From assembly GCA_964549185.1 (NCBI GenBank), contig CAZJUI010000005.1, positions 1 through 57,453 on the forward strand: a stretch of DNA of 57,453 nucleotides, in the 5' to 3' direction. The notes beneath the pieces were generated by a model. The model made no database searches. It saw only the letters and a list, made by a program, of their open reading frames with translations, and was not told the origin of the DNA. The translations under genes and the position numbers were made by a program. Source of the DNA: Candidatus Woesearchaeota archaeon (GTDB lineage: Archaea; Nanobdellota; Nanobdellia; SCGC-AAA011-G17; JAGVZF01). Positions 3,910 through 53,873 of the stretch are shown piece by piece; within the stretch, counting starts at the first letter, position 1; each line of letters begins with the position of its first letter.

Positions 3910-3953
3910 TTTATTCTTTTCTAATATATATTTTATTAAAGCTTTTTGTTTTG

Positions 3954-4724: not shown

Positions 4725-4735
4725 AATACTTAAAA

Positions 4736-5962: not shown

Positions 5963-6084
5963 TAAAGAAAATGTGTTTTATTAGAATAAAAAGGTTGTTA
6001 TGTATATTAATTATTGATTAGTAGTTACTTTTAGAAAGGTTTATAAACAGATATTTTTTGATAATTATTATGGTATCCGTCATA

Positions 6085-13137: not shown

Positions 13138-14348
13138 TTTCTTCTAAATACTTTTTTAACCTCCAATAATCCATCAATTAATGAATTAACATCTTCTTTT
13201 TTATTGTATAAATAAAATGAAGCTCTTGCAACAGCTGGAACTTTTAAGAATTTCATTAAAGGTTGAGCACAATTATGACCTGCTCTTATTGCTATTCCTT
13301 TTGTATCCAGAATAGCTGCTATATCATGTGGATGAATCTTTTCCATTGAAAATGAAATTACACCAATTCTTTTTTTAACATCAAATGAACCATGAATTTT
13401 TAAATCTTTAATTTCCTGTAATCTTTTTAAAGCATATTGTGTTAATGCTTTTTCATGTAATTGAATATTATCCATTCCGATATTATTAAGATAATCTATT
13501 GCTGCTCCTAAACCTATTGCATCTGCTATTGGGGGAGTTCCTGCTTCAAATTTGTAAGGAGCATTTTTATATGTTGTTTCAAATAAATTAACTTCTTTTA
13601 TCATATTTCCTCCACCCAAGAAGGGTTCAAGTTTTTCTTGCAATTCTTCTTTTGCAAATAACACTCCAATTCCAGTCGGACCTAGCATTTTATGTCCTGA
13701 AAAAGCTAAGAAATCTGTATAAGAAGAATCTATTTTAAAATGAGGGGCTGATTGAGCAGCATCTACTAAAAATAAAGATTTATTATCATGAACTATTTTG
13801 CTAATATTTTTAATATCATTTATTGTTCCAGTTACATTGGAGCAATGAGTTAGAGCAACTAGTTTTGTATTTTTTGTTAATAATGATTGGAAATGTTTCA
13901 TATCTAATGTTGTATCTTTGTTAAGATTAATATATTTTAATTTAATACCTTTAAATTTATATAAAAATTGCCAAGGAATGATATTAGCATGATGTTCAGC
14001 TATTGATAAAATAATTTCATCTCCTTTTTTTAATCCTTGTTTCATTAAAGAATAAGCAATTGTGTTAATAGATTCAGTAGTTGATCTTGTAAATATCAGT
14101 TCTTGTGATTTAGAATTAATAAATTTAGAAACTTTTTCTCTTGAATTTTCATATAGTTCAGTTGATTCATTTCCTAATGTATGAATACTTCGATGGATAT
14201 TAGCATTATTTTTTTTATAAAAATCAGAAATTGCATTAATCACTTTAATTGGTTTTTGAGATGTTGCTGCATTATCTAGATAAATCAATCTCTTGCCATT
14301 AATTTTCCTAGTGAGAATAGGAAAGTCCTTTTCAATTTGTTTTTTCAT
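13134..14348 (-). CDS. sufS: cysteine desulfurase SufS (class V aminotransferase)
   Basis: PLP-Lys motif FSGHKMLGPTGIGVL and catalytic Cys loop RAGHNCAQP. 404 aa. Confidence 0.93.
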   Translation of the reverse strand: MKKQIEKDFPILTRKINGKRLIYLDNAATSQKPIKVINAISDFYKKNNANIHRSIHTLGNESTELYENSREKVSKFINSKSQELIFTRSTTESINTIAYSLMKQGLKKGDEIILSIAEHHANIIPWQFLYKFKGIKLKYINLNKDTTLDMKHFQSLLTKNTKLVALTHCSNVTGTINDIKNISKIVHDNKSLFLVDAAQSAPHFKIDSSYTDFLAFSGHKMLGPTGIGVLFAKEELQEKLEPFLGGGNMIKEVNLFETTYKNAPYKFEAGTPPIADAIGLGAAIDYLNNIGMDNIQLHEKALTQYALKRLQEIKDLKIHGSFDVKKRIGVISFSMEKIHPHDIAAILDTKGIAIRAGHNCAQPLMKFLKVPAVARASFYLYNKKEDVNSLIDGLLEVKKVFRRK

Positions 14349-15441
14349 AGACTAGTTTTTGCTTTATTAAAGTTAAAAATGTTTCTTTTAGCTCTTCAGA
14401 GAGTAATTCTAGAACTGGATTGAAAAATCCTGTAATAATAGCATGTTTTGCTTCTTCTTTTGACAAGCCACGGGACATTAGATAGAATAATTGATCTTCA
14501 TCTATTTGACCAACTGAAGCTGAGTGGCCTGCTTGAACATCATTTGCTTCTATTTCTAAGCCTGGAATAGCATCTGCTTTTGCTCCCGGATTTAAGATTA
14601 AAGCATGATCTGATAAGAAAGATTTTGTTTTTTGTCCCTCTTTTGATATTCTTATCATTCCATTAGATAAACATCTTGAACTATCTTTTAATGCCCCTTT
14701 TATCAAGACTTCGGAAGTTGTAAAAGGTTTATTATGAATAACATTTGTATTAAGTTCAAAGTTTTGACTAGACGAACCAAAAAATAATTCAATGTTTTTA
14801 AGTTGAGAATTTTCTCCATTAAGATAGAAATCTGTAAATGTTTTATTATAATTACTACCCAAACAAATAAATGAATGATGTAAATTTGCATTTTTATCTA
14901 AAACAAAAGATTTTGCTGAAACATTTTCCATATTATTTCCAAATTTTTGTAATTCTATGAAATTAAGATTTGAATTTTCTTTCTGAAAAACTTCTAAAGA
15001 TGAGTTTCTTTTTGCTAATGAATCTGAATCAAGATTATGGATTATTGTTAATGAGCTGTTTTCTTCTAAAACAATTATATTTTTCTCTACAATGTTATCT
15101 GCCTTTGTGCTTAATATCAATGGAATTTCTAATTTAACATTTTTTGGCACTTTGATAAATAATCCTGAATTAAAAAATGCATTATTAATTAAGAGATCTC
15201 TTTCTGTATGGGGGAAAATTGCTTTGTCTTGAAAATATTTTTGAAAGAATTCTTGATTTTTATATATAGCTTCATTAATATCTAGAATTTCCAAAGTACC
15301 ATTATCTTCATACAATATTTTAGATGTTGAGATTAAAGGATTTATTTCTGTTTCTGGAATTATTGTTTTAGCTAGATTAAAGCTTGCTTCACGAAAATCT
15401 TTAAGCCAATTTGGTTCATTGTCCAAAAATACTGTTTTCAT
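14332..15441 (-). CDS. sufD: Fe-S cluster assembly protein SufD
   Basis: SufB/D beta-helix C-terminal signature ...[29 protein letters not shown], paralogous to the SufB C-terminus. Position in the suf operon supports the call. Confidence 0.85.
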   Translation of the reverse strand: MKTVFLDNEPNWLKDFREASFNLAKTIIPETEINPLISTSKILYEDNGTLEILDINEAIYKNQEFFQKYFQDKAIFPHTERDLLINNAFFNSGLFIKVPKNVKLEIPLILSTKADNIVEKNIIVLEENSSLTIIHNLDSDSLAKRNSSLEVFQKENSNLNFIELQKFGNNMENVSAKSFVLDKNANLHHSFICLGSNYNKTFTDFYLNGENSQLKNIELFFGSSSQNFELNTNVIHNKPFTTSEVLIKGALKDSSRCLSNGMIRISKEGQKTKSFLSDHALILNPGAKADAIPGLEIEANDVQAGHSASVGQIDEDQLFYLMSRGLSKEEAKHAIITGFFNPVLELLSEELKETFLTLIKQKLVYEKTN

Positions 15442-18400
15442 TAGCCAACACTTCCTTCCATCTCCATTTTTATTAGCTTATTAAGTTCGATTGCATATTC
15501 CATTGGAAGTTCTTTTGTAAATTCTGCCATGAAACCTAGAACTATCATTGACATTGCTTCTGATTCTGATAATCCGCGAGACATTAGATAAAATAATTGA
15601 TCTTCTCCTATTTTTCCAACATAAGCTTCATGAGATATTGTAACATCTTCTTCATCAATATTCATTGTTGGATAGGTATCTGATCTTGATTCTTCATTTA
15701 ACATTAAAGCATCGCATTTTACAGATGATGTTGAATTGTGGGCTCCTTTTGCTATTCTTACTAAGCCACGATAAGAAGAATGTCCATTTCCATTGCTAAT
15801 AGATTTTGAGATTATTCTTGAGGTTGTGTTTGGAGCAAGATGAATTGCTTTTCCACCTGCATCTTGATGTTGATTATTTGAAGCAAATGCTACTGATAAA
15901 ATATCTGCTTTTGCATTTTTACCTTTTAGATAAACAGAAGGATATTTCATTGTTAATTTACTATTATGGACAATTACATTATTCGCAATAAAATTATGCG
16001 ATCCTTCTATTTCTAAATCATATGTTGGTTTCTCCCCGATAGGAATAATCTTTGTTATTTTTTGTAATGCAAGATGTTTTGGTAAAGATATTCTCCTTGT
16101 TTTACTTAACCAGTATTTTGAACGTTGGTAAGCATCTTTTGGAATTTTATTTTTATTTTCTCTGGAAAAAAATTCCCATAGCTTTGAAAGTCCACTAATC
16201 AACATGATATAACTTGTATACTCTTTTTCAGGATAGTCGTACTTACTATTAGAGGATATCTTTTTTATTATAATTTCTTTTTTTATTCTATTCACTTCGA
16301 TTCCACAAGTTATTGCTAAATTCTTTAAATCCTCCAATAGTTCTTTATTGCAAGTTTTTAATCTTGCTCCATTTTTTCTAATAGTCCCATCAGCTTCGAT
16401 GTATCCTGTTAGAAACGCTTTCTTTTGACTTACGGGAAGATTGAATACCCATTCAGGCACTCTTTTTGTGTGTGCATTTCCTTCTAATCCATTCATTTTT
16501 AAGAATTCGGCAACAATAAGGCTATTGTATGATATAACTATCTTATCTTTTCTTTCTGTATAATTTTTTAAAGCAAATATTTTATCCATAACCTTTACAA
16601 GTTTTTCTCTTGCAGAATCAGATGATGGAATGGAAAATATAATTTTTCCAAATCGATTATTCCCAGTTTTTTTATTTTTGGCTATATCAATATTTCCATC
16701 GCCAATTATTAATCCCATTAGCCATAAAACATCATCATTTGTTTTCTCAGGTAGTTTTACTTTGTTGTATTTATAAGAAGTATTCATCTCATAAACTGCA
16801 CCATATTGATTCCTACCTATAATCTTTCTTTCTGTTGTTGGTTTTTTTAATTCATAGTCTGTTCCTAAATTTGGCATTTCTCTAGGAACTACTAGATAAG
16901 ATTCCTCAGATAAATACTCCAAAGGTAACCATGTGAATATATAGCGTCCAAGTTTTTTTGGTCTTTCTTTATCATAATGAATTGTTAAAAATGGATGGGT
17001 TTTTGTTGCAATTATCTCTCTTTTTCCATTTTCCAAAATAATTTTATAAGCAGGTTTTATTCCTGAAAACTTTGTGGCGACAACTTTTTTTGCTTCTAAT
17101 TCTTTTGTCTTTTCATTGAAAGTAATCACTTTCTGTCCTTCTTTAATAGCTTGAATTTCTTTAAATCCGGGATTTGTAGAAATTTTTGTTCCTTCGGCAA
17201 GGCATCCTAAGTTGCCATCTATCCATTCAACAGTTGCATTTTCATAAGCGTAAGCTCTTTTTGTAACCAAATTATAAACATTGTTTGACCAATTTTGTAT
17301 TGTTGTGTATCTAACTTTTGCATCTTTCAATGCAATAACTTCGACGACAGCTGCATGCAAAGAATCTGTAGAATAAACTGGGGCTGTACAATTGTGGACT
17401 AAAATATTATGGCTAACATATGATTCATCTTCTTCTACGCTGAAATTATAAACATCTAGGTTTTTTACTTTCTCTTTTTTGATGCTTTTAATTGGAACAA
17501 ATGCATAATCTCCGATAATTTTACCATAGGAAACAAGCTCGAGTTGTGTAACCATATTTCCATCTTTTGATTCTGCTAAAGATATATTATTATCAACTAT
17601 ATTTCCAAATGATTCAAGATAAGATCCTCCAACATAGATAACATATAAATCTGTTCTTGGTTTTTGTCTTTTCCAAACATTAATTGATGCTATAATATTT
17701 AATCTTAGTAAAATTTCTTTCATTCCCTCTGCTAATTCATTAGAAACAGTACAAATTCTAAATGCTCGTTTATTCCCCCAGGAATATTTCTTTGATGTTA
17801 CGTTTCCATCTCCCCTAAACCATCCTTTAATTAATTCTGATTGTTTTTCTAGAGATTCAAAAAGCATCCATTTTGGGAGATGTTTATTATGCGCACCAGC
17901 ACCAAACTGTTGCTTAAATATTCTTGCTGCAGTTGTTGAACATAATATTACGCTTATTCCATTTTTGTATTCTGCTTGTTCTATTGCTTCTTTTCCAAAT
18001 ATTTTTAGTAAAAGTTTTTTTACATCATCTATGTATTCTCTTTCTTTTTTATTAAATGTAAATGTTAAATAATGTTCATCAATAATTGAACCTTCAGAAA
18101 GATAATAACCAGCTAATCTGAAAAGGTCTTTATCTGTTCTTAATGGAACTTCTACCTTCTCTTTTTTACCAAACTTAATTGTGAATAATCTTTCATCCTT
18201 ACTAATCACTGTTCTGTCTATAGGAATGACAACATAATCTCCTTTAGAAAGTTTACTTGCTGGCATCCATTCTATCTTCCAATCTTGGTTTTTGTATTCT
18301 ATTTTTTCTTTTTTTGAAGTTAGAATTGGATGTTCGGAAGTTATTTTTATTTTATGCCTTGAATCTGTATAATATTCAATTGTGTAAAGATCTCCATCAT

Positions 18401-19244
18401 ATTTGCGAACTTGGGTGTTGTAAACTTTTTTGTAATCTAATTTATGTGTTAAAACAAGATCATTAACTTTAACAGCTTCTATTTTTTTAGTTCCATCTAA
18501 AGTTTTTATTGTGGTTCCTTTCACAAAACAACCTTCAATGTAATGAACGTCTGCACCTTCATCTGCTATAATTAATGTTCTTTCAAATTGTCCAACATTT
18601 TTAGCATTTATTCTGAAATAAGCTTGTAGTGGGACTGAAACTTTAACTCCCTTCGGAACATAAACAAATGATCCTCCGGACCATGTTGCTGTATTTAATG
18701 CTGCAAATTTATTATCTCCTGCTGGAATTACTGTTCCAAAATATTTTTTAACAATATCTGGATGTTCTTTCAATGCAGTATCCATATCTGTAAAGATAAC
18801 TCCTTGTGCTGCTAAATCTTCTCTTAGATTATGGTAAATAGATTCAGATTCAAATTGAGCTCCTAAACCACCTAGAAATTTCTTTTCAGCTTCTGGAACT
18901 CCTAATTTATCAAATGTTTTTTTAATATATTCAGGAACATCATCCCATGAATCTGTTTTAATATCAGAAGGTCTAAAATAATAGGTTATGTTATCAAAAT
19001 CGATATTGCCTAAATTACCTCCCCAAATTGGCATAGGTCTTGATTCAAATATTTTTAAAGCTTTTAATCTATTATCTAACATCCATTGAGGTTCATTTTT
19101 AATTTTTGATATTTCTTCAACTATCTCTTTAGATAAACCTTTTTTAGATTTATGAACGAAAGTTTCAGGAACGCTAAATCCATATTTCTCTAGATAATCT
19201 GTGTTAATTGCATTTATTGCACTAACATCTTTTTTGATTTCCAT
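15441..19244 (-). CDS. sufB: Fe-S cluster assembly protein SufB precursor containing two inteins (extein 473 aa)
   Basis: 1267-aa ORF. Removing residues 239-618 and 681-1094 leaves a normal-length SufB with joined motifs HYIEG-CTAPVYS and [14 protein letters not shown], and C-terminal ...[23 protein letters not shown]. Confidence 0.95.
15963..17204 (-). mobile_element. SufB intein 2 (414 aa, LAGLIDADG homing endonuclease domain)
   Basis: Starts at Cys ([11 protein letters not shown]) and ends ..NNVIVHN, followed by +1 Ser (SKLT). LAGLIDADG motifs [10 protein letters not shown] and [11 protein letters not shown]. 1242 nt, in frame. Confidence 0.9.
17391..18530 (-). mobile_element. SufB intein 1 (380 aa, LAGLIDADG homing endonuclease domain)
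   Basis: Starts at Cys ([13 protein letters not shown]) and ends ..NILVHN, followed by +1 Cys (CTAP). LAGLIDADG motifs [10 protein letters not shown] and [11 protein letters not shown]. Boundaries were mapped codon by codon and are in frame (1140 nt). Confidence 0.9.
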
Positions 19245-19985
19245 TTAAGCAACCTCGTAACCGTTTTGTTCTATTTCTAAAGCTAGAGAATAATCTCCTG
19301 ATCTAAGAATTTCTCCATTTGTGATAATGTGGACTTTGTCTGGCTTAACATATTCTAAAATTCTTGGATAATGAGTAATTAATAAAATTCCAGTTCCTTT
19401 TTCTTTTAGTTTTTTTATATTTTCAGAAACTATCTTTAATGAATCAACATCCAATCCAGAATCTGTTTCATCTAGAATTGCTATTTTAGGTTCTAAAACA
19501 GACATTTGCAGTATTTCAGCTCTTTTCTTTTCTCCACCTGAAAATCCTTGATTTAAAGAACGGGTTGTAAATGATTTATCCATCTTTAAATTATCCATAT
19601 TTTCAGTTAATTTCTTTTGAAATTCTTGAACTGTGATTGCTTTTTCTTTATTTTCTTTTAGTTTAGCATTTAATGAATTACGTAAAAAAGAAGCTAACAT
19701 AACTCCTGGAACTTCTTGAGGATGTTGAAAAGATAAAAATAAACCTTTTCTTGCTCTTTGATCTACTGTAAGATTAAGTATATCTTCATTGTTTAATAAA
19801 ATTTCACCTTTATTTATCTTGTATTTAGGATGACCAAGAATAGCAAATGATAATGAACTTTTACCTGTTCCATTTGGACCCATTAAAGCATGAACTTCTC
19901 CTGAATTAATTGTTAAATTTAGATTTCTAATTATTTGCTTGTCTTCTATACTTACATCTAAATCTTTTATTTGTAGAGTGTTCAT
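19245..19985 (-). CDS. sufC: Fe-S cluster assembly ATPase SufC
   Basis: Walker A GPNGTGKSS, ABC signature FSGGEKKR and Walker B ILDETDSGLD. 246 aa. Confidence 0.95.
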   Translation of the reverse strand: MNTLQIKDLDVSIEDKQIIRNLNLTINSGEVHALMGPNGTGKSSLSFAILGHPKYKINKGEILLNNEDILNLTVDQRARKGLFLSFQHPQEVPGVMLASFLRNSLNAKLKENKEKAITVQEFQKKLTENMDNLKMDKSFTTRSLNQGFSGGEKKRAEILQMSVLEPKIAILDETDSGLDVDSLKIVSENIKKLKEKGTGILLITHYPRILEYVKPDKVHIITNGEILRSGDYSLALEIEQNGYEVA

Positions 19986-28938: not shown

Positions 28939-30786
28939 ATGAAAATATTAACAATTCACTCTGATCATCTAAAAGTTGAAGCAAAAAAGAAGGCAATAAA
29001 GAATGCTGAAGAAATTATTAAAGGAGAGTTAGAAGTTGAAAATTGTTTAGTGGTATTAACAGCTGTTGAAAAGAGAGATGAAAGTGATTTAAATAGAGCA
29101 GCTCAATTACTAGTTAAAGAGATTGAAGATGTTGCTAAGCAAGTTAATGAAAAAACAATTGTTCTTTATCCTTATGCTCATTTGAGCAATGAGCTAGCTT
29201 TGCCAGATAGAGCATTGATTGTCTTAAAGAAAGCTGAAGAGTTATTAAAAATAAAAAAATATAATGTTTTTAGAGCATGGTTTGGATGGTATAAGGCATT
29301 TGAATTAAAGGCTAAAGGACATCCATTAGCAGAGTTAAGCAGAGAATTTTATCCTGATCAAAAAGAAGAAGAAAATGTTGCAGTACAAGAAGAAAAGAAA
29401 TTAAAAAGTAAATGGTATATTCTAGAACCAAGTGGAAAGTTAAATGATTTAGGTAAATTTGATTTTAAAGATAATAAAAATTTAAAGATATTTTCTAAAT
29501 ATGAGGAGAGTAAAGTAAGAGAGGTGAAAGATATTCCTGCTCATGTTAAATTAATGAAGAAATTAGAGCTAGTTGATTATGAAGAAGCAAGCGATCCTGG
29601 AAACTTTAGATATTATCCAAAGGGAAGGTTGATTAAAAGTTTGATTGAAACTTATGTTACAGAAAGAACGATAAAATATGGGGCTTTTGAAGTTGAAAGC
29701 CCGATAATGTATAATTTTAATCATCCAGCTTTAGCAAAATATGTACAAAGATTTCCAGCAAGACAATATATAATTGAAAGTGATAAAAATAGATATTTCT
29801 TGAGATTTTCAGCTTGTTTTGGGCAGTTTTTAATTGCTCATGATAGTACAATAAGCTATAAAAATTTACCTTATAGAATTTATGAGTTAACAAGATATAG
29901 TTTTAGGAGAGAACAAAGAGGAGAGTTAACTGGATTGAGAAGATTAAGAGCATTTACAATGCCGGATGTTCATTGTATGTGTCAAGATATGAAACAAGCT
30001 TTAGAAGAATATAAAGTAAGATTTAATTTATGCAAGGAAGTTTTAACATCTATTGGATTTAGCTTAGATGATTTTGAGCTAGCTTTTAGAGTGACTAAAG
30101 ACTTTTATGATAAAAATAAAGAATTAATTAATAATTTAGTAAAAGATATTGGAAAACCTGTATTATTAGAGATGTGGGATGAAAGGAAATTTTACTTTGT
30201 ATTAAAATATGAATTTAATTTTGTTGATGGAAATGAGAAGGCAAGTGCATTATCAACTGATCAGATAGATGTTGAAAATGGAGAGAGATTTGATATTAAT
30301 TTTATTAACAAAGAAGGGAAAAAAGAACATCCATTAATATTGCATTGTAGTCCTTCTGGAGCTGTTGAAAGAGTTATTTATGCTTTGCTTGAGAAAGCAG
30401 CTAAAGAGAAAGTACAAAAATTACCTTTATGGCTTACTCCTACTCAAATAAGAATAATTCCAGTAAGTAAGGATAAACATTTAAAATTTGCTGAGAAATT
30501 AGCTGATGAATTTGAAAATATTAGGGTTGATATTGATGATAATGATGATACAATAAATAAAAGAATAAGAAATGCAGAGGAAGAATGGTGTAGCTATATA
30601 TTAGTTGTTGGAGATAAAGAAATGGATGGGAAGAAGTTAATGGTAAGAAGAAGAGAGGATGGAAAGCAATTGGAGATGAGTAAAGAAGAGTTAGTTAAGG
30701 AAATTAAAAGTAAAACAAAAAATATGCCATTTAAAGTTTTAAGTTTACCAAGGTTATTGAGTAAGAGAGCTATATTTTCAAAATGA
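28939..30786 (+). CDS. thrS: threonyl-tRNA synthetase, archaeal type with N-terminal D-aminoacyl-tRNA-deacylase-like editing domain
   Basis: 615 aa. N-terminus MKILTIHSDHLKVEAKKKA (archaeal tRNA-Thr editing domain). Class II core (FRYYPKG, RLRAFTMPDVH, LHCSPSGAVERVIYALLE) and a C-terminal anticodon-binding domain. Confidence 0.93.
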   Translation: MKILTIHSDHLKVEAKKKAIKNAEEIIKGELEVENCLVVLTAVEKRDESDLNRAAQLLVKEIEDVAKQVNEKTIVLYPYAHLSNELALPDRALIVLKKAEELLKIKKYNVFRAWFGWYKAFELKAKGHPLAELSREFYPDQKEEENVAVQEEKKLKSKWYILEPSGKLNDLGKFDFKDNKNLKIFSKYEESKVREVKDIPAHVKLMKKLELVDYEEASDPGNFRYYPKGRLIKSLIETYVTERTIKYGAFEVESPIMYNFNHPALAKYVQRFPARQYIIESDKNRYFLRFSACFGQFLIAHDSTISYKNLPYRIYELTRYSFRREQRGELTGLRRLRAFTMPDVHCMCQDMKQALEEYKVRFNLCKEVLTSIGFSLDDFELAFRVTKDFYDKNKELINNLVKDIGKPVLLEMWDERKFYFVLKYEFNFVDGNEKASALSTDQIDVENGERFDINFINKEGKKEHPLILHCSPSGAVERVIYALLEKAAKEKVQKLPLWLTPTQIRIIPVSKDKHLKFAEKLADEFENIRVDIDDNDDTINKRIRNAEEEWCSYILVVGDKEMDGKKLMVRRREDGKQLEMSKEELVKEIKSKTKNMPFKVLSLPRLLSKRAIFSK

Positions 30787-34979: not shown

Positions 34980-35087
34980 TGGGCCCAAGGAGATTTGAAC
35001 TCCCGACCCCCAGCTCACTTAGGGTCCCAGATGTTGCCTGGAATGTCATATAAGACTGGTGCTCTAACCAGGCTGAGCTATGGGCCC
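34980..35087 (-). tRNA. tRNA-Ile (UAU) with a 33-nt canonical-position BHB intron
   Basis: Reverse complement GGGCCCATAGCTCAGCCTGGTTAGAGCACCAGT-CTTATA[intron]A-GCTGGGGGTCGGGAGTTCAAATCTCCTTGGGCCCA. The mature anticodon loop is CUUAUAA, so the anticodon is UAU. The GGGCCC acceptor is typical of archaeal tRNA-Ile. Confidence 0.85.
35016..35048 (-). other. tRNA-Ile intron (33 nt, between positions 37/38)
   Basis: The central 4-bp helix CUUA (nt 32-35) pairs with UAAG near the intron 3' end and is flanked by 3-nt bulges UAU and UGA. Cutting after the second bulge nucleotide on each strand gives exactly the 37/38 junction. Confidence 0.8.
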
Positions 35088-38507: not shown

Positions 38508-38930
38508 TTAATTATTTTCTTCTTGCTTTTTATCATCTAATATATTTCCAACTTCTTTGTCTTTTGCATTAAATGTAGATAATAAATCAATAACGTATTT
38601 TCCATCTTCTAATTTGTAAACCAATGGCTTTCCCTTAAATAAATTAACAATATCAAGTTCATATTCTCCTGGTTTAAGGATTCTTATTGATTCTAGATCA
38701 AGAAAAACAGGATGATCATATTCTATTTCTTCTCCCAAAATATCTAGAACATCTTTTTCTATTTGTTCTCTATCTTCAGGAGAAAGAGAAACTGTAAGTT
38801 CTTTTGCTCTTTCAACATCTGCTTTTTTTAAATAAAAGAAAAACTTACCACCACAATTGGAACAACCTTTCAATAATTCTTGAGAAGCATCTTCATAAAA
38901 TGTATTGCATTTAACACATTGGTGGGGCAT
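38508..38930 (-). CDS. Zn-ribbon protein (archaeal COG3364/DUF2072-like, from memory)
   Basis: MPHQCVKCNTFY...GCSNCGGKFFFY has CxxC...CxxC. It is abutted by the upstream genes. Confidence 0.65.
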   Translation of the reverse strand: MPHQCVKCNTFYEDASQELLKGCSNCGGKFFFYLKKADVERAKELTVSLSPEDREQIEKDVLDILGEEIEYDHPVFLDLESIRILKPGEYELDIVNLFKGKPLVYKLEDGKYVIDLLSTFNAKDKEVGNILDDKKQEENN

Positions 38931-39311
38931 TTATTTTTTCCTTTTTTTGGAATCTCGAGTTAGTAACTCTATCTTATTGGGATCACGTTTAATCTCTTTT
39001 ACAATTGAAGCTGGACCTATGATTGTTATTCCTTCTCTATAACCTAAGAATTGTAGGAATTGTTTTTTTAATAATTCATAAGGCTGAATATTCTTTTTTT
39101 CAGTATAAATTGTTCCTATTTCTATGCCTTTAAACTTTCTATCTATCATCTCCATTGTTCTTTCAATTAATGCTGTTTCTTCAGATGGTTTAAGCCTTCC
39201 TTCAACTAATAATATTCTGTCTGATTTAACTAGATTAAGTAATTTTCTTATTTTATCTTCTGATTGCAGATTTTGAAGTTCTGTATGCGGAATGTATTGC
39301 AAAGTTAACAT
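38931..39311 (-). CDS. small conserved archaeal protein (COG3365/DUF2073-like, from memory)
   Basis: 126 aa, lying between the GTPase and the Zn-ribbon gene with 0- to 1-nt junctions. Confidence 0.55.
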   Translation of the reverse strand: MLTLQYIPHTELQNLQSEDKIRKLLNLVKSDRILLVEGRLKPSEETALIERTMEMIDRKFKGIEIGTIYTEKKNIQPYELLKKQFLQFLGYREGITIIGPASIVKEIKRDPNKIELLTRDSKKRKK

Positions 39312-42134: not shown

Positions 42135-42344
42135 ATGAAAACTAAGAAAAAAGATCCTTTTGAAGAAATAATTGAAATATTGCAAGATTATGATAAAGGA
42201 TTTCCAGCGAGAACACATCATGATTTTGAAATTTGTATGTGTAGTGATGATAAACATCATGGAAAAGAGATTACTATAAAAGAGATTGAATTTAAAGGTA
42301 ATAAAGTTGTTAAAAAAAGATTAAGGAAGATAAAAAAGAATTAA
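42135..42344 (+). CDS. hypothetical small protein (69 aa)
   Basis: ATG 3 nt after the previous stop. No motif recognised. Confidence 0.4.
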   Translation: MKTKKKDPFEEIIEILQDYDKGFPARTHHDFEICMCSDDKHHGKEITIKEIEFKGNKVVKKRLRKIKKN

Positions 42345-42757
42345 ATATCAATAACAATTCTAGCTTTCCATTTATTTTTAATCTTTTTGATTTCAAATTG
42401 ATGTAAAGTTATAGCTTTAACATCATTTCTTAATTCTTGAGTATCATAATTAATTTTATCACAATAAAGAGTTGCTTCTAGCTTAAAATCTTTTATCTTT
42501 ACTTTAGCTTTTTGAAAAACAAGCTGTTTTGTATCTTTTATGTAAACAATTTCAGAAAGGAAGTTGTAAAGTAAATCGTCTATTTTATTTGCTTTTAGTT
42601 TAATTGTTTTCTTAATCTTCCCTTTTAAATCTTTTAAGTTAACCATGCAGTCAAATAATGCAAGTGCTGAATTTTCAAATAACTCATTTAGATTATTACC
42701 ATAAGCATCAAATGCTATATCTGCTATGGCTACATCTTCTAAAAATCTGTATTTCAT
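42341..42757 (-). CDS. archease (RtcB activator)
   Basis: 138 aa. MKYRFLEDVAIADIAFDAYGNNLNELFENSALAL...AITLHQFEIKK...ARIVIDI is the archease N-terminal D/ADI signature with a matching C-terminal strand. Confidence 0.85.
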   Translation of the reverse strand: MKYRFLEDVAIADIAFDAYGNNLNELFENSALALFDCMVNLKDLKGKIKKTIKLKANKIDDLLYNFLSEIVYIKDTKQLVFQKAKVKIKDFKLEATLYCDKINYDTQELRNDVKAITLHQFEIKKIKNKWKARIVIDI

Positions 42758-43627: not shown

Positions 43628-45149
43628 TTAATTTTTTATATTTCCAATCGGAATTAATTTTGCAACGGGTTTTGAAATGCCTGCTTTATGAATTGCATCA
43701 ATCACATCATTAATCTCTTTGTAGGCTATTCCAGCTTCTTCTGCTAATCCTGCCATTGATCCTGTTTTAACATATATTCCACGTTTTTCCATATCTTGCT
43801 GCAATTTATCTCCCCTAATTTCGTGTTTAGCTTTTGTTCTTGACATTGTTCTTCCACTGCCGTGACACGTCGAGCTGAAGGTTTCTTCATCTGCTTTTGT
43901 TGTTCCAGATAATAAATAACTTCCAGTTTCCATGCTTCCTCCAATAATAACAGGAGAGCCAATATCTCTATAAATTTTAGAAACTTCAGGATTATTTGGA
44001 CCTTGACATAAGGTGGCTCCTTTTCTATGGACAATTAATTTTTTCTTTTTTCCATCAATTTTAAATTCTTGTAGTCTAGCTAGATTATGAGCAACATCGT
44101 AAATACAATGCATTTCCATGTCTTCTGCTTTTTTCTTGAAAATTTGTTCAAAAGATTCTCGAATTCTATGTAAAATAACTTGTCTATTCGAGAAAGCCAT
44201 GTTAGCTGCACATGCCATTGCTTTATAATAATCTTGACCTTCTTTACTTTGGAATGGGGCACATGCTAATTCTCTATCATTTACTTTTATATTATATTTT
44301 TCCATTGCTGTATTAAATGTTTGTAGATAATTCGTAGCTACCTCATGCCCAAATCCGCGACTGCCACAATGAAACATGATAACAATCTGATCAGCAAATA
44401 TTCCAAATTTCTTTGCTGTTTTTTCATCTACTATATTTTCAGGCTTAACATGTTGTATTTCAAGATAATGATTTCCTGAACCAAGAGTTCCGAGTTGATT
44501 AATTCCACGATATCTTGCTTTTTGTGAAATTTTAGATGAATCTGCCCATTCTATTTTACCATTGCTTTCTATTCTTTCTAGGTCCTCTTTCCAACCATAA
44601 CCATTATCTATACACCATTTTACTCCTTCTTCCATAAGTTCATCAAATTGTTGATTATTAAGCTTAACAAAGCCTTTACTTCCGACTCCAGATGGAACTA
44701 TTTTATACAAAGAATCTACTAATTCTCTTATCCTAGGTTGAACTTCTTTTATGGTTAAGTTAGTTGTAACAAGCCTCATGCCACAATTGATCATTCGTCG
44801 CAGTTTTTGATTCTTGCGAAATCGAATCCAATGCCGCCGGGGCTTATTACTCCAGTTTCAGCATCCATTGCAGCCACACCGCCTATCGGAAATCCATAAC
44901 CCTTCCATTGTAACAAGATATTTGTTCTTAGTTACATCAATGGCCGTCAGGCATGCATAGAGCATACCTTTGGATTCCAGGTAGGCAAGCTACATTGGTT
45001 ACTTGATCAAACACTCCAGGATCCATTGCATCCAATAATTTTTTAGTTGCAATAATCCTTGCTGGTACTAACATTCCTTCTTTAAAGCTAGTTGGAATTT
45101 CCCAAACTGCTTCTTCGATTTGTTTTATGTCTTTAGGTGCATTTGTCAT
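43628..45149 (-). CDS. rtcB: RNA 3'-phosphate/tRNA-splicing ligase RtcB, interrupted by two BHB mini-introns (3 exons)
   Basis: Exons 45149-44938, 44902-44821 and 44791-43628 (212+82+1164 = 1458 nt, 485 aa plus stop). The joined product reads ..[48 protein letters not shown].., colinear with RtcB as I remember it from Pyrococcus horikoshii ([37 protein letters not shown]). Downstream motifs [20 protein letters not shown] and STCHGSGR are present. Confidence 0.9.
44792..44820 (-). other. rtcB intron 2 (29 nt, BHB-type)
   Basis: RNA: (CAUUGGA)-UUCG-[AUU]-UCGCA-(12-nt loop AGAAUCAAAAAC)-UGCGA-CGAA-[UGA]-(UCAAUUG). This gives a 4-bp central helix, two 3-nt bulges, a 5-bp inner hairpin and an imperfect outer helix (5 of 7 pairs). 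Cutting after bulge nucleotide 2 joins GAU|AUC, which encodes Asp-Ile. Confidence 0.85.
44903..44937 (-). other. rtcB intron 1 (35 nt, BHB/hBH-type)
   Basis: RNA: CCAU-[UGA]-UGUAAC-(16-nt loop UAAGAACAAAUAUCUU)-GUUACA-AUGG-[AAG]. This gives a 4-bp central helix flanked by two 3-nt bulges and an intron-internal 6-bp hairpin. Cutting after bulge nucleotide 2 on both strands joins CAU UG|G GGU, which encodes His-Trp-Gly. Confidence 0.8.
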
Positions 45150-45171
45150 AATTTAGAGAGATTTAGTTATC

Positions 45172-45179
45172 TTTTTAAA
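45172..45179 (-). promoter_or_regulatory. TATA box (TTTAAAAA) of rtcB
   Basis: Octamer 23 nt upstream of ATG 45149. It overlaps the stop codon of the LAGLIDADG gene. Confidence 0.4.
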
Positions 45180-45819
45180 TTTTTGCTATTTGATAAGAAT
45201 TTAGAGCTTCTTTAAGTTTAATTTTTTTATTTGGATGTAAAAATCCTATGTTATTATTAAATCTTTTAAGGTCATCTAATCCACAGATATTTAATCTATA
45301 AATTATCCTATCTTTTCTAATCCTTATCTTTAATTTAGATTCTATTTTAAATCTAGATAATGCTTTTTGCACTTGTTTTAGCCCCTTAAGATTTACACAT
45401 TCTACCCTTATAGACCTACTTTTAGCTGGTTGCAGTTCTACCCAAGATTCACAATCAAAAAATGCTCTTAACCATAATCTTAGATTTTCTTTTGAGATTT
45501 GAGGCATATTCCATTCATAGGAATAATAAGAATATTTTTTGGTTAATACATAAAAAATCTCCTTTGAACCTATGTAACATCTTTCTTTTATTACAAGTAT
45601 TGGTGTTTTTTTGAAGTATTTTTTAAATCTTCTTTGGAAATCCTTTAATAGTATTAAATTTGTATTTCTAAAACCAATTTTGTAATATTTATGTTTTTGG
45701 TATACTGGATTTCTTATCACATAACCATCAGCACAAAGATAAGCATGCACTGCAGATAAGTCACTATTAAATTTCATTTTAAGGCATAAAATTCGATTAT
45801 TTATAAACCCTGTGCGCAT
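45175..45819 (-). CDS. free-standing double-motif LAGLIDADG homing endonuclease-like protein
   Basis: 214 aa with two LAGLIDADG-type motifs, VHAYLCADGYV and LWLRAFFDCESWV, about 100 aa apart. There are no intein splicing blocks and no flanking extein. The start may be the internal MKFNS. Confidence 0.75.
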   Translation of the reverse strand: MRTGFINNRILCLKMKFNSDLSAVHAYLCADGYVIRNPVYQKHKYYKIGFRNTNLILLKDFQRRFKKYFKKTPILVIKERCYIGSKEIFYVLTKKYSYYSYEWNMPQISKENLRLWLRAFFDCESWVELQPAKSRSIRVECVNLKGLKQVQKALSRFKIESKLKIRIRKDRIIYRLNICGLDDLKRFNNNIGFLHPNKKIKLKEALNSYQIAKI

Positions 45820-45867
45820 ATATTCATGAAATGAGAAGTGTTCAGATATATTTTATAAGGTTTGCGT

Positions 45868-49172: not shown

Positions 49173-49413
49173 TTCTTAATTCTTCCTGAGTTAGTTTTTC
49201 TATATTGGCTAGAATATTTATAACATAATTTTTTAATTGACTAATTTGAGATTCTATAGAACTAAGCTCATCTTTCTTTTTTTTAAGAATTATTTTATCT
49301 TTTTCACGCGCAACATCTTCTGTTAATAATCTTCTTTTCTCTAATAAAATGTCATATTTTCCAGCGATTTCATTAAGGCTTTCTGCATTATGATAGATTG
49401 CTTCTATTGTCAT
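49156..49413 (-). CDS. small coiled-coil protein (85 aa)
   Basis: Heptad-rich sequence. Overlaps both neighbouring genes within the pilus operon. Confidence 0.45.
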   Translation of the reverse strand: MTIEAIYHNAESLNEIAGKYDILLEKRRLLTEDVAREKDKIILKKKKDELSSIESQISQLKNYVINILANIEKLTQEELRNANQS

Positions 49414-52400
49414 ATTAATCCGAATTTAGCTAGAACAGCTTTTGGATCTTTATAGTATTCATTGATAACTTCTTTAACTTCTTTAAAATCAAATATTCCT
49501 TTTTTATACATAGCAATAAGCAAATTTGTTCTTTTATTGAATTCATCCATTATTTTTGTTATACTTAATCCATGATGTAATAATAATTTTTGAAATGCGT
49601 AGCTGTTTGATTTGAAGTAAAAAGTATCTTTTTGTGGATCCCAAATAAATGGTGTGTTAATATTTGCTGACCCCTTTTCTGTAACATTTATTATTTCTGA
49701 AACTTCTCGTATTCTTCTTACAGGTTTAGCCTGAAGTTTTGTTTGCGTCATTACACAGACTACATCTAAGATTTCTACAAGTGATGAAGAAAGATTAATT
49801 GGTGGAGTTTCTAATCTTTTTATCATAGTATCGACGGAGTTTGCATGCATTGTGCCAAGACTTGGATGACCAGAATTATGAAGTAAAATTCCTCCAAATC
49901 CTCCAATAAAATTCCTTGTTCTTGGTATAGCAATATCATACACTGGTTCTTTTTTATCCAGTTTTATTATTTCTATAGACCTTATGGTATCTATATATAA
50001 ATCTCCTAATAATCTGGGATTAATTGATTTTCCTACAAATTTATTATTTTTATTTTTAATTGAATTTGTATATCTCAAGAATTCATTTTTGTCTAAAGCA
50101 TTATAAAATAGTATTTCGTAATCTGTTATTTTTCTTCCCACTCGATTTCTAGATCTAATTGTAGCGACTATTCCGAATGTTAACAATAATTTTGATATAT
50201 CATCTGCGAATTTTTTTGATATTGTAAAATAACCAAAGTAATTTTCTGTAAAGCTCCCATCGCCATCATATAATGCAGATAAAAATTGTCCTATCTTTTC
50301 TTTTGATAATCCAAATATAAAATCAGGAATTTTTTTATCATGTTTTGCTCCGCAATAAATTCTTAAAAATTCATGAATCACTTTATGGTTGAATGATAAT
50401 TCTGTCGCTGTTCCAAACCCTTTTGTTATTCTTCCACGTTGGTTTTTTCCTGTAATCTTAAAAATACAATATCTCATATCTTGCAAAATACTTTTATCTT
50501 TGTTATATAAAGCAATTTTTTTACTTTTACTTCTCCCAAGACTTCCCCCAGATAGATAATATCCTAATAATCTTAAAAACTCATTTGTTAAGTAAAGTTT
50601 AGAAGGTAAACTTTCGCTATTTTTATCAAATTTTAATATTAAATTTTCTGAATCATAATTAATTTCAGCATCTTTCATTAATTTTATGAATTTTTCGACT
50701 TTTAAAGAAGATGGTTTTGCTCTTTTAAAATTAGAATAATAATCTGTTATAGATTCAATGCCACAAATTGCAGATGCTGGATAATATCCTAATTTAGTAA
50801 CTGCCTCCTTTACCAATTTAGGAGAATAAATTCTTGCATGGGGCAATAACTCTAATAAATTTATATACTCTAAATCTGCATAACCGCAAGGAATTTTAGA
50901 CGGAATTAGTATTTTCTCTCCAATTCTTAAACTTTCCATTGGGGCACTTATAACTTTATTTTCATACTTAAATACTGAATGATCTGGTGTTAATGTTATT
51001 TCTCTACCTGTTCTTGTTGTTATCTTATATAATATTTTTCTTGTTGGATGTTTTAATACTGCAGTTATTGGTAAAATTTCTACTTTCTTTGTATTAAGGT
51101 TATAAGTTGGAGCATAACAATCTTTAATATCATTTAAATCTTTAATCTTTATTTTTAATGATTTTCTATCTTTAATAATAAATATTTCTTCATCTCCTTG
51201 GATAGATCCCATGCCCTGAAATAAAACATACGCTTCTGCTCCTCTTACTTCTCCAACAATAACATAGTCTGGATTTTGTCTGAAACTTTCTTTTAATAAA
51301 TCAAATAAAGAAACTTCTCCATATTTCTGTCCAACTAGATTAGATAAACCAACTCCAGCTCTTGCAACCGATGGAAGCCAGTTTTCATGTTGAAGATTTA
51401 ATTCTCTAGTGTCTTCTATTGAAACTATTCTTGCCTGTGGTGGAATGAAAAATGTTAGGGCATTAAGAAATGTTGTTTTTCCTGAGCCTGTTCCCCCGAC
51501 TATCATAATGTTCATTTCATATTCAAGTAAAATCCAAAGATAAGCCAAGATTTGTGGAGAGCAAGTTCCAAGTTGCATTAATTTTGTAGGTGTCCAAGGT
51601 TTTTTTGTGAACTTCCTTATAGTAAAACTTGGTCCCCTAGAAGATATATCCTCGGTAAAGGTAGCATTTGCTCTACTATTATGACAAAATAAACCGCCAA
51701 ATCCTGCTATAAAATTTTCATTTTTTGGAACAGACACATCATAAACATAATTACCTGTTGGTTTAACTTTATTAATATTATTAACCCTTAAAAATATAAA
51801 ATCTGAATCTATTAATTTTTTTACAAAATCTAGTTCATAGATAACTTCTTGTCCTTCTTTAGTTAATAGATTCGTGCCTTTTATATTTTTTATTATTCTA
51901 CGCTTTGTCCATTCTAGTATGAATTTTCTAGATTTGACATTTTCGAGGTTATTAAAGTTTTTAAATCTGATTTCATTTAATATTTTTTTCAATCTTTCCC
52001 TTCTTAGTCTATTATTCTTTAATTTATGGTGTGTTTTATTTAGTGGATTAAATAATATTATAGGTACCATTGTATGGAAATCACTTAATTTTCTTCTATA
52101 ATAATTAGTATATATTTCATGACTTTCAATTTTTCTATTATCGAATTTTGCTATTCTGTCTCTTTCATAAAATGGGACAATCCTGTTTTTGAATAATGAA
52201 AGATATGAAATATCGGTTGCTAATTTTTTGCTTGCTGTGCTCCCAAAATCACTATTGTGCCAGGCCTTAATAAATTCTTCTTGAAGCTCTTTATTAACAT
52301 TAAAAACTATTTCAGGGACTTCTTTGGTTTTAGCACCTTTGCTTACCTTTAAAACATCTCTAAAAACTAAATAAATTAACAAACTAGTAATCCTTAATTT

Positions 52401-53873
52401 ATTTGCATTTTTTTCTTCAGGTTCTATATATATCTTATTGGAAAAGCATTTGATAAAATTATCATTAACTTCATTATGATATTCATGTTCATTTTTGTTA
52501 AAGCAGAAAGAAACTGAATATTGATGTTTCCTGTTAGATAACCAACCTTCCCCGATATAATATCCTAATAATCTCATTAGTTCTTTATTAGCTTTTAGAA
52601 ATGTTGGAATTTGTACACTAGATGTTGTAGCTATTTTACACTTTCTTAATTCTTCTTCAGTTAAAATATTATATAATCTTATTGGTAATATTCTCTTTCT
52701 TTTATGTTCATTATATGTTGGAATTACATTCTTATAATTATCTTTATAATATTTTTTTATCTCTTTATTTTTATCTTTAAAAATACGTAAAGGAATTTTA
52801 GTTAGTATAATCTTTTTATAATATTCACTTTCACTTAATTCTTTTGCTAAATTAAACTCATCAATAATATCATTTTCAGGTAATGTTAATGGAGCAATTA
52901 CATAATCTCCTATTTTTAAATTTGTTACTAACTCTGGTTTTATATTATCTTTTCTTAAAACAAATATGCTATGAACTCCAGTTAATCTTACATTTCTTGA
53001 AGCTTCTAACTGTAATTCATATAAATCTTCATTTGCTTTGTGTCTATAAACATAATCTATCTTTTTCCAATTTATTTTCATACTTTTATCAAAGGCTGGA
53101 ACTTCAATATTGCTAACATTTATTGGTTTATTGCTCTCATTATTCTTATAATATTTATCAATAAATTCTCCCATCTTTGAAATTTTTACTTTATTATTTT
53201 CTTTGTAAATGAATGGCTCATTGCAATCTACGCTTCCATCAGGCAAAGCTCCATCCAATAATGGGGTAGCATAAGAAATGTATTGACCACATTTTTGAGC
53301 AAGCTTTTCTACAAATGAAGTTAAAACTTGAACATCGTCATATTGAATGTTTGTTCTTAAATTTCTATATTTTCTATGAACAATGTAAATTGGAAAGTTT
53401 GTTCCATTACATTCTATATCTTCTATAAAATAATCATTAAGAAAAGGCTCTATTTTTCCGAAACCTGCAAAATCACGATAGATGAAATACATTATTTTAA
53501 GATATGACTCTTTTATTAATTGTATTCTTAATTCTTCTAATAAAACTTGAACATTTTTTTCAAGATACTTAATAACAGATTCTGGGTCTTTAACTGAAAT
53601 GAAACTTATGTTTATTAATTCTTTAATTCCATCTTCCAATAATCTTAAAATTCTAGCTTCTTCGGCTGTTAATCCTGGTTCTTCAACAAAATAAACTAGT
53701 TCTTTGTTATCAAAATCCCAAAAGATATGGGCATATGCGTAAGGAGGTATTAATGGATATTTTAGATTAACATTTTCATCTGGAACTTCTGGAAAAACAG
53801 GAATTTTTGGTTTTAGATCTATCTTGAAAATAGGCTCTTCTTTTAATTCGACATGTGCCTCTTTTTTTAACAT
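49410..53873 (-). CDS. type IV pilus/secretion ATPase (GspE/FlaI/TadA/VirB11 superfamily) precursor with two inteins (extein 524 aa)
   Basis: 1487-aa ORF. After removing residues 214-732 and 890-1333 the exteins read ..[32 protein letters not shown].., Walker A [10 protein letters not shown], Walker B/Asp box [33 protein letters not shown]. Confidence 0.93.
   Translation of the reverse strand: [1487 protein letters not shown]
49875..51206 (-). mobile_element. pilus-ATPase intein 2 (444 aa, Ser1, LAGLIDADG domain)
   Basis: Starts [12 protein letters not shown] and ends ..[13 protein letters not shown], followed by +1 Ser. LAGLIDADG motifs [10 protein letters not shown] and [11 protein letters not shown]. 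1332 nt, in frame. Restores FQGMG-SGH, which corresponds to the family motif FQAMxTGH. Confidence 0.85.
51678..53234 (-). mobile_element. pilus-ATPase intein 1 (519 aa, Ser1, LAGLIDADG domain)
   Basis: Starts [11 protein letters not shown] and ends ..[13 protein letters not shown], followed by +1 Ser. LAGLIDADG motifs [10 protein letters not shown] and [11 protein letters not shown]. 1557 nt, in frame. The Ser1 assignment restores the canonical PDGSR motif. Confidence 0.8.

Follow-up and report, generated by a model that had tools for sequence, protein, structure and literature searches.

Predicted bulge–helix–bulge mini-introns in the rtcB gene of DPANN archaea and a putative LAGLIDADG endonuclease gene associated with them

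How can the gene of an RNA ligase that is broken into three reading frames still yield its enzyme, and why should it be broken just there? The question is raised by rtcB, encoding the tRNA-splicing ligase RtcB, in a 57,453-nt stretch of DNA with a G+C content of 28% (contig CAZJUI010000005.1 of assembly GCA_964549185.1, Candidatus Woesearchaeota archaeon, DPANN). The whole stretch is called the window below, and all coordinates refer to it unless another locus is named. A preliminary description had explained the breaks by two insertions resembling the bulge–helix–bulge (BHB) introns of archaeal tRNAs. The data presented here make it very likely that both inserts are genuine archaeal BHB introns in the rtcB pre-mRNA. 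Hence the BHB interpretation stands, and the case for it appears stronger and broader than originally stated; overlooked were the wide spread of such introns in rtcB and a LAGLIDADG gene upstream of it.

In the list of open reading frames (ORFs) rtcB occupies 45149..43628 on the minus strand as three pieces in three frames: a 70-aa ORF (44937–45149) ending in ...ALCMPDGH*, 27 residues in the third frame, inside a 41-aa ORF, and a 388-aa ORF (43628–44794) beginning with MINCGMRL. Removal of 44903–44937 (35 nt, intron 1) and 44792–44820 (29 nt, intron 2) yields one ORF of 1458 nt encoding 485 aa. Exon 1 (44938..45149) then comprises codons 1–70 and the UG of Trp71, the 82-nt exon 2 (44821..44902) runs from the G of Trp71 to Asp98, and exon 3 (43628..44791) from Ile99 to the stop. 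The product is aligned to RtcB of P. horikoshii (1uc2, PH1602) over residues 8–484 with E = 3e-173 and with no indel at either junction, which bears out the expected colinearity, and the 27 third-frame residues, reported earlier as missing from the two annotated pieces, are present and match 1uc2. In this alignment HWGYG of the window is paired with HQGYG, and GFDINCG with GYDINCG, whose D95 and C98, numbered as in the preliminary description, we take to be metal ligands. The HWGYG form is used by the nearest RtcB relatives, and the nearest homologues come from metagenome-assembled genomes labelled Woesearchaeota and Nanoarchaeota. The homology is full-length, the conserved motifs are present, the homologues carry Pfam PF01139, and exon 3 is marked as Pfam RtcB in the annotation of a separately assembled contig (see below). 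One homologue (P0021, 651 aa), suspected of containing an intein or a read-through intron, proved to have an internal duplication.

The best homologue (P0001) is intact, has the same length of 485 aa and 92% amino acid identity, and is encoded in a JGI contig (locus L001) whose synteny with the window includes a 136-aa gene upstream and the AAA_28 gene, archease, and an XPD-type helicase gene downstream. Alignment of the two loci with MAFFT (85% nucleotide identity) reveals exactly three window-specific insertions, 681 nt at 45847..45167, 35 nt at 44937..44903, and 29 nt at 44820..44792, the last two coinciding to the nucleotide with the proposed introns. Across the first junction L001 reads GGT CAT TGG GGC TAC (GHWGY of the motif GHWGYG), and across the second, GGA TTT GAC GTG AAT TGT (GFDVNC of GFDVNCG). 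As L001 encodes the predicted junction residues, including the Trp whose codon in the window straddles the first junction (UG + G), the predicted junctions are those of the intron-less allele, and the spliced gene has the same length as that of L001.

Both inserts fold into BHB elements. In intron 1 (CCAU UG/A ugua ac...guuaca AUGG AA/G, slashes here and below marking predicted cuts or insertion points) the 4-bp helix CCAU-AUGG is flanked by the opposite 3-nt bulges UGA and AAG, and the inner helix has 6 bp; in intron 2 ((GA)UUCG AU/U ucgca...ugcga CGAA UG/A (UC)) the 4-bp helix UUCG-CGAA stands between the bulges AUU and UGA, and the inner helix has 5 bp. These elements, each with its inner hairpin as originally drawn, are present in the minimum free energy structures predicted by RNAfold. 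In both introns the frame is restored when each bulge is cut between its second and third nucleotides. The same rule holds for the tRNA-Ile(UAU) gene of the window (34980..35087, minus strand; Rfam tRNA, 56.5 bits), with its canonical BHB intron of about 33 nt, seen as a 34-nt insertion at 37/38. It was from this tRNA that the rule had been taken, and the junctions that it predicts, HWG and GFD-INCG, restore the frame and correspond to HWG and DVNC of L001. The BHB intron in tRNA-Ile also implies that the organism uses EndA-type splicing and that the enzyme is present in its genome. At the gathering threshold, Rfam finds four tRNAs in the whole window and nothing else; group I, group II, or other Rfam ribozymes were rejected as the identity of the inserts, given this result and the lengths of 29 and 35 nt, and so were inteins, as the lengths are too short and not multiples of three.

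The two interruptions are not a peculiarity of this contig. Two degenerate patterns, with conserved flanking codons as anchors and a gap of 20–50 nt, recover the inserts of the window and have no matches in 100 shuffles. At site 1 (HWGYG, between MPDGH and YGxPIGG), inserts have been identified in 79 GTDB species representatives, nearly all bearing names of DPANN lineages (Woese-, Aenigmat-, Micr-, and Nanoarchaeota/Nanoarchaeia), some being labelled “uncultured archaeon” or “Methanosarcinales.” Together with the window this makes 80 loci, with inserts of 21–38 nt, of which 38 shift the frame; the lengths of the other 42 are multiples of three, but all 42 contain an in-frame stop, so that the ORF is broken in 80 out of 80 cases. 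At site 2 (GFD/INCG), there are 41 pattern matches in metagenome contigs (26), GTDB loci, and the window, approximately 35 of them in real rtcB genes, while five of the 26 metagenome matches are due to chance and lie outside rtcB. In total, interruptions at the two sites are seen in more than 100 genomes and contigs from several phyla, with rtcB otherwise full-length; together with L001, these provide the intron-plus and intron-minus alleles that the preliminary description had suggested looking for in related genomes.

At site 1, where colinearity is defined by MPDxHxGYGxPIG, the pair of cuts restoring it also fits the canonical geometry (three or more of the four pairs of helix H formed, no fewer than 4 bp in the inner helix, and each cut following the second nucleotide of a bulge) in 75 out of 80 loci, compared to 0.54% of all possible cut pairs. 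At site 2 the colinear pair fits in 28 of the 41 pattern matches. The top-scoring BHB element predicted blindly coincides with the colinear pair in only 23 of the 80 site-1 loci; as registers shifted by one nucleotide score alike, this score is weak and was replaced by the above test of the geometry of the colinear pair.

The exact position of insertion varies, with at least four positions within approximately 10 nt at each site. At site 1 the most frequent class is CAY/NNN (58 loci), followed by GGNU/AY (11) and CAYUG/G (10, including the window), and one locus has the insertion at +6; at site 2 we observe GAY/AUH (22 loci, including the window), AU/H (about 10), +4 in three loci, and –2 in two (L086, L117). 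Two introns illustrate the range: a 17-nt one after the Tyr codon of HFGYG in L097 (about 2060–2080; GGCU AU/A gcugaaaggc GGCC AA/G), and a 31-nt one inside the Asp codon of GFD in L117 (about 4640–4670; GAUU UG/U ... AAUC AC/A). No target-site duplications were found at the 120 junctions checked, direct repeats of at least 3 nt being present at five of them and at none in the window. Further, the loops of the two window introns had been said to share a stretch like AAGAAyCAAA. This did not hold, as only AAGAA is common to both, which is not above chance; the best exact match between site-1 and site-2 introns is 11 nt, and the best run with one mismatch, 15 nt, both within the range of shuffled sequences, hence the loops do not suggest that introns of the two sites are homologous or that one was derived from the other by transposition.

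Covariation is pronounced. The exon and intron halves of helix H change together, forming GGUC-GACA, GGCC-GGCA, CCAU-AUGG or GUGG, UCAU-GUGA, UUCG-CGAA, UUUG-CAAA, UGAC-GUCA, CGAC-GUCG, and ACAU-GUGU. In 121 distinct introns positions H2–H4 and h′1–h′4 are paired in 94–98% of sequences, with four to six pair types per position, compared to 15–75% in slid controls; in the largest class a G·A mismatch occupies H1, and pairing in the outer helix is weak. In the site-1 class CAYUG/G (13 sequences), 99.1% of cells are paired and there are five double-changed pairs, values reached in none of 500 shuffles, and in the site-2 class GAY/AUH (15 sequences) 95.8% of cells are paired, with six double-changed pairs; here none of 500 shuffles reaches the value for paired cells or for covariation, and one reaches the number of double-changed pairs. 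Slid controls yield 25–62% for either class. Compensatory changes preserve the structure of these homologous introns.

Three explanations would dispense with splicing, and the data at hand allow us to weigh them. Artefacts of assembly or sequencing, conceivable in a metagenome-type assembly of such low G+C content, have practically no chance against a Logan contig of SRR12113430 (a separately built assembly, possibly from the same reads as the window), which contains both inserts and the upstream endonuclease gene in a gap-free alignment with one mismatch in 3958 nt (99.97%), and against the homologous inserts recovered by many projects, with many assemblers, in 79 GTDB genomes and about 35 contigs.

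If, on the other hand, rtcB were a decaying pseudogene disabled by the inserts, another ligase or a second rtcB should be working in its place. The fragmentation into three frames would fit decay, and a second copy may exist outside the 57 kb, the only protein scan of the entire window (tblastn) having been done with the LAGLIDADG protein and not with RtcB. However, the spliced frame is shown by comparison with L001 to be under purifying selection (dN/dS, the ratio of nonsynonymous to synonymous substitution rates, is 0.077 overall, 0.05 around exon 2, and 0.09 in exon 3), its 485 codons contain no further frame break, the same two sites are broken in more than 100 genomes of several phyla with rtcB otherwise full-length, and compensatory changes preserve the BHB pairing, which is not expected of random indels. 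Decay of the gene is thus very improbable.

Equally hard to sustain is retention of the inserts in the mature mRNA, with ribosomes bypassing them, as in T4 gene 60 and the mitochondrial byps, shifting the frame, or translating the loops. The inserts are indeed short and form hairpins, and in intron 1 UGA immediately follows the CAU that would serve as take-off codon, superficially similar to gene 60. Still, bypassing needs matching take-off and landing codons, whereas repeats of this size are as rare as described above and Trp71 of the window is built from UG and G across the junction; read-through is contradicted by the 38 frame-shifting site-1 inserts and by the stops in all 42 in-frame ones; and the conserved trait is the two-bulge geometry with an exon–intron helix H, for which bypassing has no need. 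We therefore reject a pseudogene, an assembly error, a translated insert, and ribosomal bypass, based on selection, the second assembly, stops and frameshifts, and the lack of repeats, respectively.

Some observations weigh against BHB introns as well. First of all, it is from sequence that we infer splicing itself, the roles of EndA as the cutting and RtcB as the joining enzyme, and the feedback loop considered below. Secondly, the outer helix has no regular pairs in intron 1 and 2 bp in intron 2, making these relaxed HBh′ motifs, and the commonest site-1 class elsewhere has a G·A mismatch at the first pair of helix H. Both the missing outer helix and the mismatch imply that an EndA of broad specificity is needed; processing of relaxed motifs is limited to such types, and broad specificity has been proposed for DPANN EndAs with the L3 loop (PMC5829648). 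Thirdly, no endA gene has been found in the 57-kb window by Pfam analysis of most ORFs of at least 90 aa (overlapping antisense ORFs excepted). Finally, the folding energies are no better than those of shuffled sequences (z = –1.74 for intron 1 and –0.23 for intron 2). The tRNA-Ile intron is similarly unexceptional (z = –1.79), and these scores, being weak, were not used as evidence; the weight of the BHB case is in the geometry and the comparative data.

Taking both inserts as BHB introns, we suggest the following order of events. The transcript would fold locally, with exonic CCAU and UUCG pairing with AUGG and CGAA near the 3′ ends of the introns, and would present two 3-nt bulges, each cut by EndA after its second nucleotide. 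The resulting 2′,3′-cyclic-phosphate and 5′-OH ends would be joined by RtcB, with archease, giving the junctions ...GGCCAUUG/GGGUUAUGG... and ...GGAUUCGAU/AUCAAUUGUGG..., that is, CAU-UGG-GGU and GAU-AUC, and an intact ligase of 485 aa. As RtcB would thereby seal its own message, synthesis of the ligase would need ligase already in the cell.

The only archaeal mRNAs reported in the searched literature to be spliced by EndA are cbf5 of Crenarchaeota, in the coding region, and HVO_1309 of Haloferax, in the 5′ untranslated region (UTR) (PMC7714728; PMC10485636), so that the earlier statement that BHB introns of protein-coding genes are essentially limited to cbf5 needs only the latter as an addition. 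The intron of cbf5, encoding the pseudouridine synthase aCBF5, is similarly short, lies in the coding region, forms a relaxed BHB, is removed by the tRNA-splicing endonuclease, and is gained and lost sporadically among relatives (Watanabe, 2002; Yoshinari, 2006; Yokobori, 2009, PMC2738675). The rtcB introns differ in being found in DPANN instead of Crenarchaeota, in number (two, 82 nt apart), in size (17–38 nt), in having at least four insertion positions per site, in residing in the gene of a ligase of the same pathway, and in the linkage with a free-standing LAGLIDADG gene; besides, splicing of cbf5 has been shown experimentally and that of rtcB is predicted. With the BHB introns of archaeal tRNAs (Marck and Grosjean, 2003; PMC4090602) they share the hBHBh′/HBh′ geometry, the cut positions, and a similar size, but here they sit in an mRNA, codons of conserved residues limit which nucleotides can form the exon half of helix H, and recognition is not aided by a tRNA body. 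The 46-nt intron of HVO_1309 from Haloferax volcanii is likewise a BHB in an mRNA, cleaved by EndA in vitro and observed as circular RNA after excision (PMC7714728); unlike those in rtcB, it lies in the 5′ UTR, is confined to haloarchaea, and has no linked endonuclease gene. A more distant parallel is found in eukaryotes, where HAC1/XBP1 mRNA is cut by Ire1 at twin stem-loops in a stress-regulated manner and the exons are joined by tRNA ligase, RTCB in metazoa. There, too, a short non-spliceosomal intron in the coding region shifts the frame, and cyclic-phosphate and hydroxyl ends are ligated; the differences are that the endonuclease is Ire1 and not EndA acting on a BHB, and that the spliced gene encodes a transcription factor and not the ligase.

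We found no mention of introns in rtcB or of a LAGLIDADG gene linked to it in the searchable literature, which does not cover subscription journals. Within that literature, rtcB would be the second archaeal gene, besides cbf5, with EndA/RtcB-type introns in its coding region.

What, then, could bring introns to these codons? A clue is offered by the third window-specific insertion (681 nt, 45167..45847), located between a TATA-like box and the rtcB ATG. It carries, on the minus strand, a free-standing gene of a putative LAGLIDADG homing endonuclease (45175..45819; 214-aa ORF; Pfam LAGLIDADG_3, E = 8e-19), which has no counterpart in L001 and hence differs in presence between alleles with 92% identical RtcB. 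We rejected the idea of a further, large BHB intron with this gene inside, as the borders of the 681-nt insertion have no BHB geometry. The real start probably is Met15 at 45777, as 35 of the 39 other aligned homologues lack an equivalent of the first 14 codons. The protein has two motifs (YLCADGYV and LRAFFDCESWV), and among 40 homologues no substitution is seen at D31 or D122, and position 124 is mostly Glu, with Asp in a few. Its sequence resembles endonuclease domains of inteins, and the AlphaFold model (pLDDT, predicted local distance difference test, 93), which suggests a monomeric double-domain fold, has PI-PfuI, the Tli VMA intein endonuclease, and I-DmoI as the top folds in PDB.

The family is large, with at least 545 sequence clusters, and most members have 270–290 aa and abut or overlap the rtcB start. 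In 31 intron-bearing loci the gene immediately preceding rtcB, in the same orientation, encodes a homologue with 43–61% identity, and when family members were looked up blindly with respect to context, five out of five were immediately upstream of a split rtcB, with differing genes further upstream. The gene is absent from all four loci with intact rtcB (L001, L003, L121, L122) and from the four other loci without the site-1 intron, and present in 26 of the 68 site-1-intron loci with at least 950 nt of upstream sequence. The adjacency and co-occurrence known from collaborative homing, where a free-standing endonuclease gene travels with an intron nearby, are thus observed here (31 loci, five of five blind choices, none of eight loci lacking the site-1 intron). 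In one locus (L118), a 453-aa LAGLIDADG_3 ORF (5226–6587, minus strand) is antisense to the 3′ part of an intron-bearing rtcB; this could be a second gene of an endonuclease, or an intein region to which the gene caller assigned the wrong strand.

That the introns and the upstream gene form one selfish cassette is moderately supported, and a number of facts speak against it. The gene is missing from 42 of the above 68 loci; the window ORF lacks the C-terminal extension of about 60 aa found in most family members, a short form also seen in L026, L043, and L057 and, on long contigs, in P0138, P0211, and P0224; and the model resembles the bI3 LAGLIDADG maturase and WhiA as well. Alternatively, the introns being real, the LAGLIDADG protein may not be a homing endonuclease aimed at rtcB; its gene would then be either an unrelated selfish element with a mere preference for this intergenic region, or that of a domesticated factor, regulatory or similar to a maturase, acting in the expression or splicing of rtcB. 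In favor of this explanation, in addition to the said folds, the gene extends up to or into the start of rtcB, the two may share a transcript, and its 53–64% identity across phyla, similar to that of RtcB, fits a long-term vertical association. Nevertheless, substitutions at the catalytic acidic residues are absent or conservative, the gene comes and goes between close alleles, rtcB is its only constant partner while the upstream neighbors vary by locus, its absence from over half of the intron-bearing loci means that it is not required for splicing, and the breakpoint in L023 described next coincides with site 1. We consider this alternative unlikely, though by no means negligible.

Returning to a homing cassette, several traces are consistent with it. 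In locus L023 (DATDZA010000049.1), a truncated, intron-less copy of the 5′ part of rtcB (1620–1853) is followed by two unrelated ORFs, a LAGLIDADG gene, and a full intron-bearing rtcB (3516–5845), and the homology between the copies (82% nucleotide identity) ends exactly at CATTGGGG, that is, at site 1. The truncated copy has the appearance of a remnant left by a break at this site; such a pattern was observed only once, which limits its weight for the cassette. Further circumstantial evidence comes from the comparison with L001, as the nucleotide identity decreases to 0.75–0.77 at 44994–44631, compared to 0.87–0.95 on either side, and the synonymous divergence dS is 1.89 for codons 71–170, with 0.84 for exon 1 and 0.54 for codons 171–485, an increase of about 3.5-fold around and just downstream of both introns (44631–44994). 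This may resemble a co-conversion tract; other dips of identity exist, however, in particular one of 0.69–0.74 at 43505–43056, over the AAA_28 gene, and these count against such a reading.

RtcB also is a known host of inteins, and their position is close to that of the mini-introns: site 2 lies 2–8 nt upstream of the intein point N100/C101, intron 2 of the window being 6 nt upstream. In L038 (1902–3440) an intein of about 1.4 kb at N100/C101 (...GFDIN/CVHPDT...VSHN/CGMR) is accompanied by a site-1 mini-intron. Inserts of 1.3–1.45 kb at this position are found in eight fetched loci (L038, L008, L036, L045, L049, L052, L055, L082), their intein borders having been read in L038 and the other seven being known by size and position. 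A site-2 intron is present in none of the seven GTDB loci with an intein-sized insert and in 12 of the 69 without it, a sample too small for significance. Three more loci (L095, L100, L102) have an in-frame insertion of about 1.38 kb near RtcB residue 238, presumably another intein site. Known RtcB inteins (PH1602; PMC4760082; NCBIfam NF038162) and the introns have in common that they are selfish elements of the same gene at the N/C of INCG or 6 nt from it, but inteins are translated, removed at the protein level, and about 1.3–1.45 kb long; the rtcB of the window has none.

The closest established model for an endonuclease gene combined with an intron is F-CphI and psbA of cyanophage S-PM2, which along with mobE/I-TevIII of T4 represents collaborative homing (Zeng et al., 2009, via PMC6083498; PMC2790892). 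According to these accounts, the phage systems resemble rtcB in that a free-standing endonuclease gene adjoins a conserved gene, the presumed target is split by an intron lacking an ORF, alleles without the intron do not have the endonuclease, and close alleles have either both elements or neither. As the systems are described there, the differences are that rtcB has a protein-spliced BHB intron instead of a group I intron, a LAGLIDADG-type endonuclease, and an archaeal chromosome instead of a phage as its setting. I-DmoI and I-PorI, encoded inside BHB introns of archaeal rRNA, are two-motif monomeric LAGLIDADG enzymes associated with BHB introns, as the rtcB-linked protein appears to be (its model has TM-scores of 0.6–0.7 to I-DmoI); in rtcB, by contrast, the introns are far too small to encode anything, and the endonuclease gene stands apart from them, ahead of the host gene.

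By analogy, the finding of this LAGLIDADG family only beside intron-bearing rtcB suggests an archaeal counterpart of collaborative homing. The enzyme would most likely cut intron-less rtcB DNA in the stretch encoding HWGYG. The intron would shield the carrier allele and be co-converted with the endonuclease gene, as in phages, and the endonuclease of the RtcB intein would cut at INCG in the same way as the LAGLIDADG enzyme at HWGYG. As the invariant codons of HWGYG would allow no synonymous escape, alleles could persist or spread only when a tiny BHB intron breaks the target. Selection for disruption of one recognition site would also explain, by circumstantial evidence, the clustering of at least four independent insertion positions within approximately 10 nt per site. 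We propose tentatively, giving it somewhat less than an even chance, that rtcB of DPANN hosts an archaeal form of collaborative homing that also generates introns, thereby making the only RNA ligase of the cell dependent on itself.

The remainder of the window adds some context. The gene of archease, the activation cofactor of RtcB, is at 42341..42757 on the minus strand (Pfam Archease, E = 2e-37) and is syntenic in L001, L004, and L111. No convincing second case of a BHB-split protein gene was found in a scan of the window, which yielded AU-only helices at gene boundaries; the scan needed an open frame of at least 200 nt on both sides and misses closely spaced introns, including those of rtcB. 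Apart from the rtcB elements, the window contains about four inteins. The 1267-aa SufB ORF (15441–19244, minus strand), between SufD (14332–15441) and SufC (19245–19985), has two intein segments with LAGLIDADG_3/Hom_end domains, and the 1487-aa ORF of a T2SSE/FlaI-type secretion ATPase (49410–53873, minus strand), two Intein_splicing matches and a LAGLIDADG_3 domain. Adjacent genes of the origin-associated proteins OapC and OapB are found at 38508–39311 (minus strand), and a replication origin may be located nearby. Genes of RNA processing and translation encode an FttA/aCPSF1-type beta-CASP nuclease (763–2658, minus strand), a CCA-adding enzyme (4736–5962, minus strand), and an archaeal threonyl-tRNA synthetase with the editing domain (28939–30786, plus strand).

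Introns of the type described here appear to be widespread, as they are predicted in at least 79 GTDB species labelled Woese-, Aenigm-, Micr-, and Nanoarchaeota, two per gene and down to 17 nt in length. They are unusual in that the host gene encodes a ligase of the same pathway, that several tiny introns are situated at active-site codons, and that they have a dedicated free-standing endonuclease as a partner. One practical consequence is that gene callers split rtcB, in the window into ORFs of 70 and 388 aa, or read one ORF through the stops, and due to these errors many DPANN genomes will be taken to have a broken rtcB or none. The dependence of the ligase on itself is testable, and if it is real, expression of rtcB relies on RtcB activity and would constitute a heritable, self-sustaining splicing loop. 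Through the tight link between rtcB and the LAGLIDADG family, the movement and the gain of BHB introns become accessible to study; if the homing model is correct, BHB introns of mRNAs would owe their origin and mobility to the immunity that they confer against homing endonucleases.

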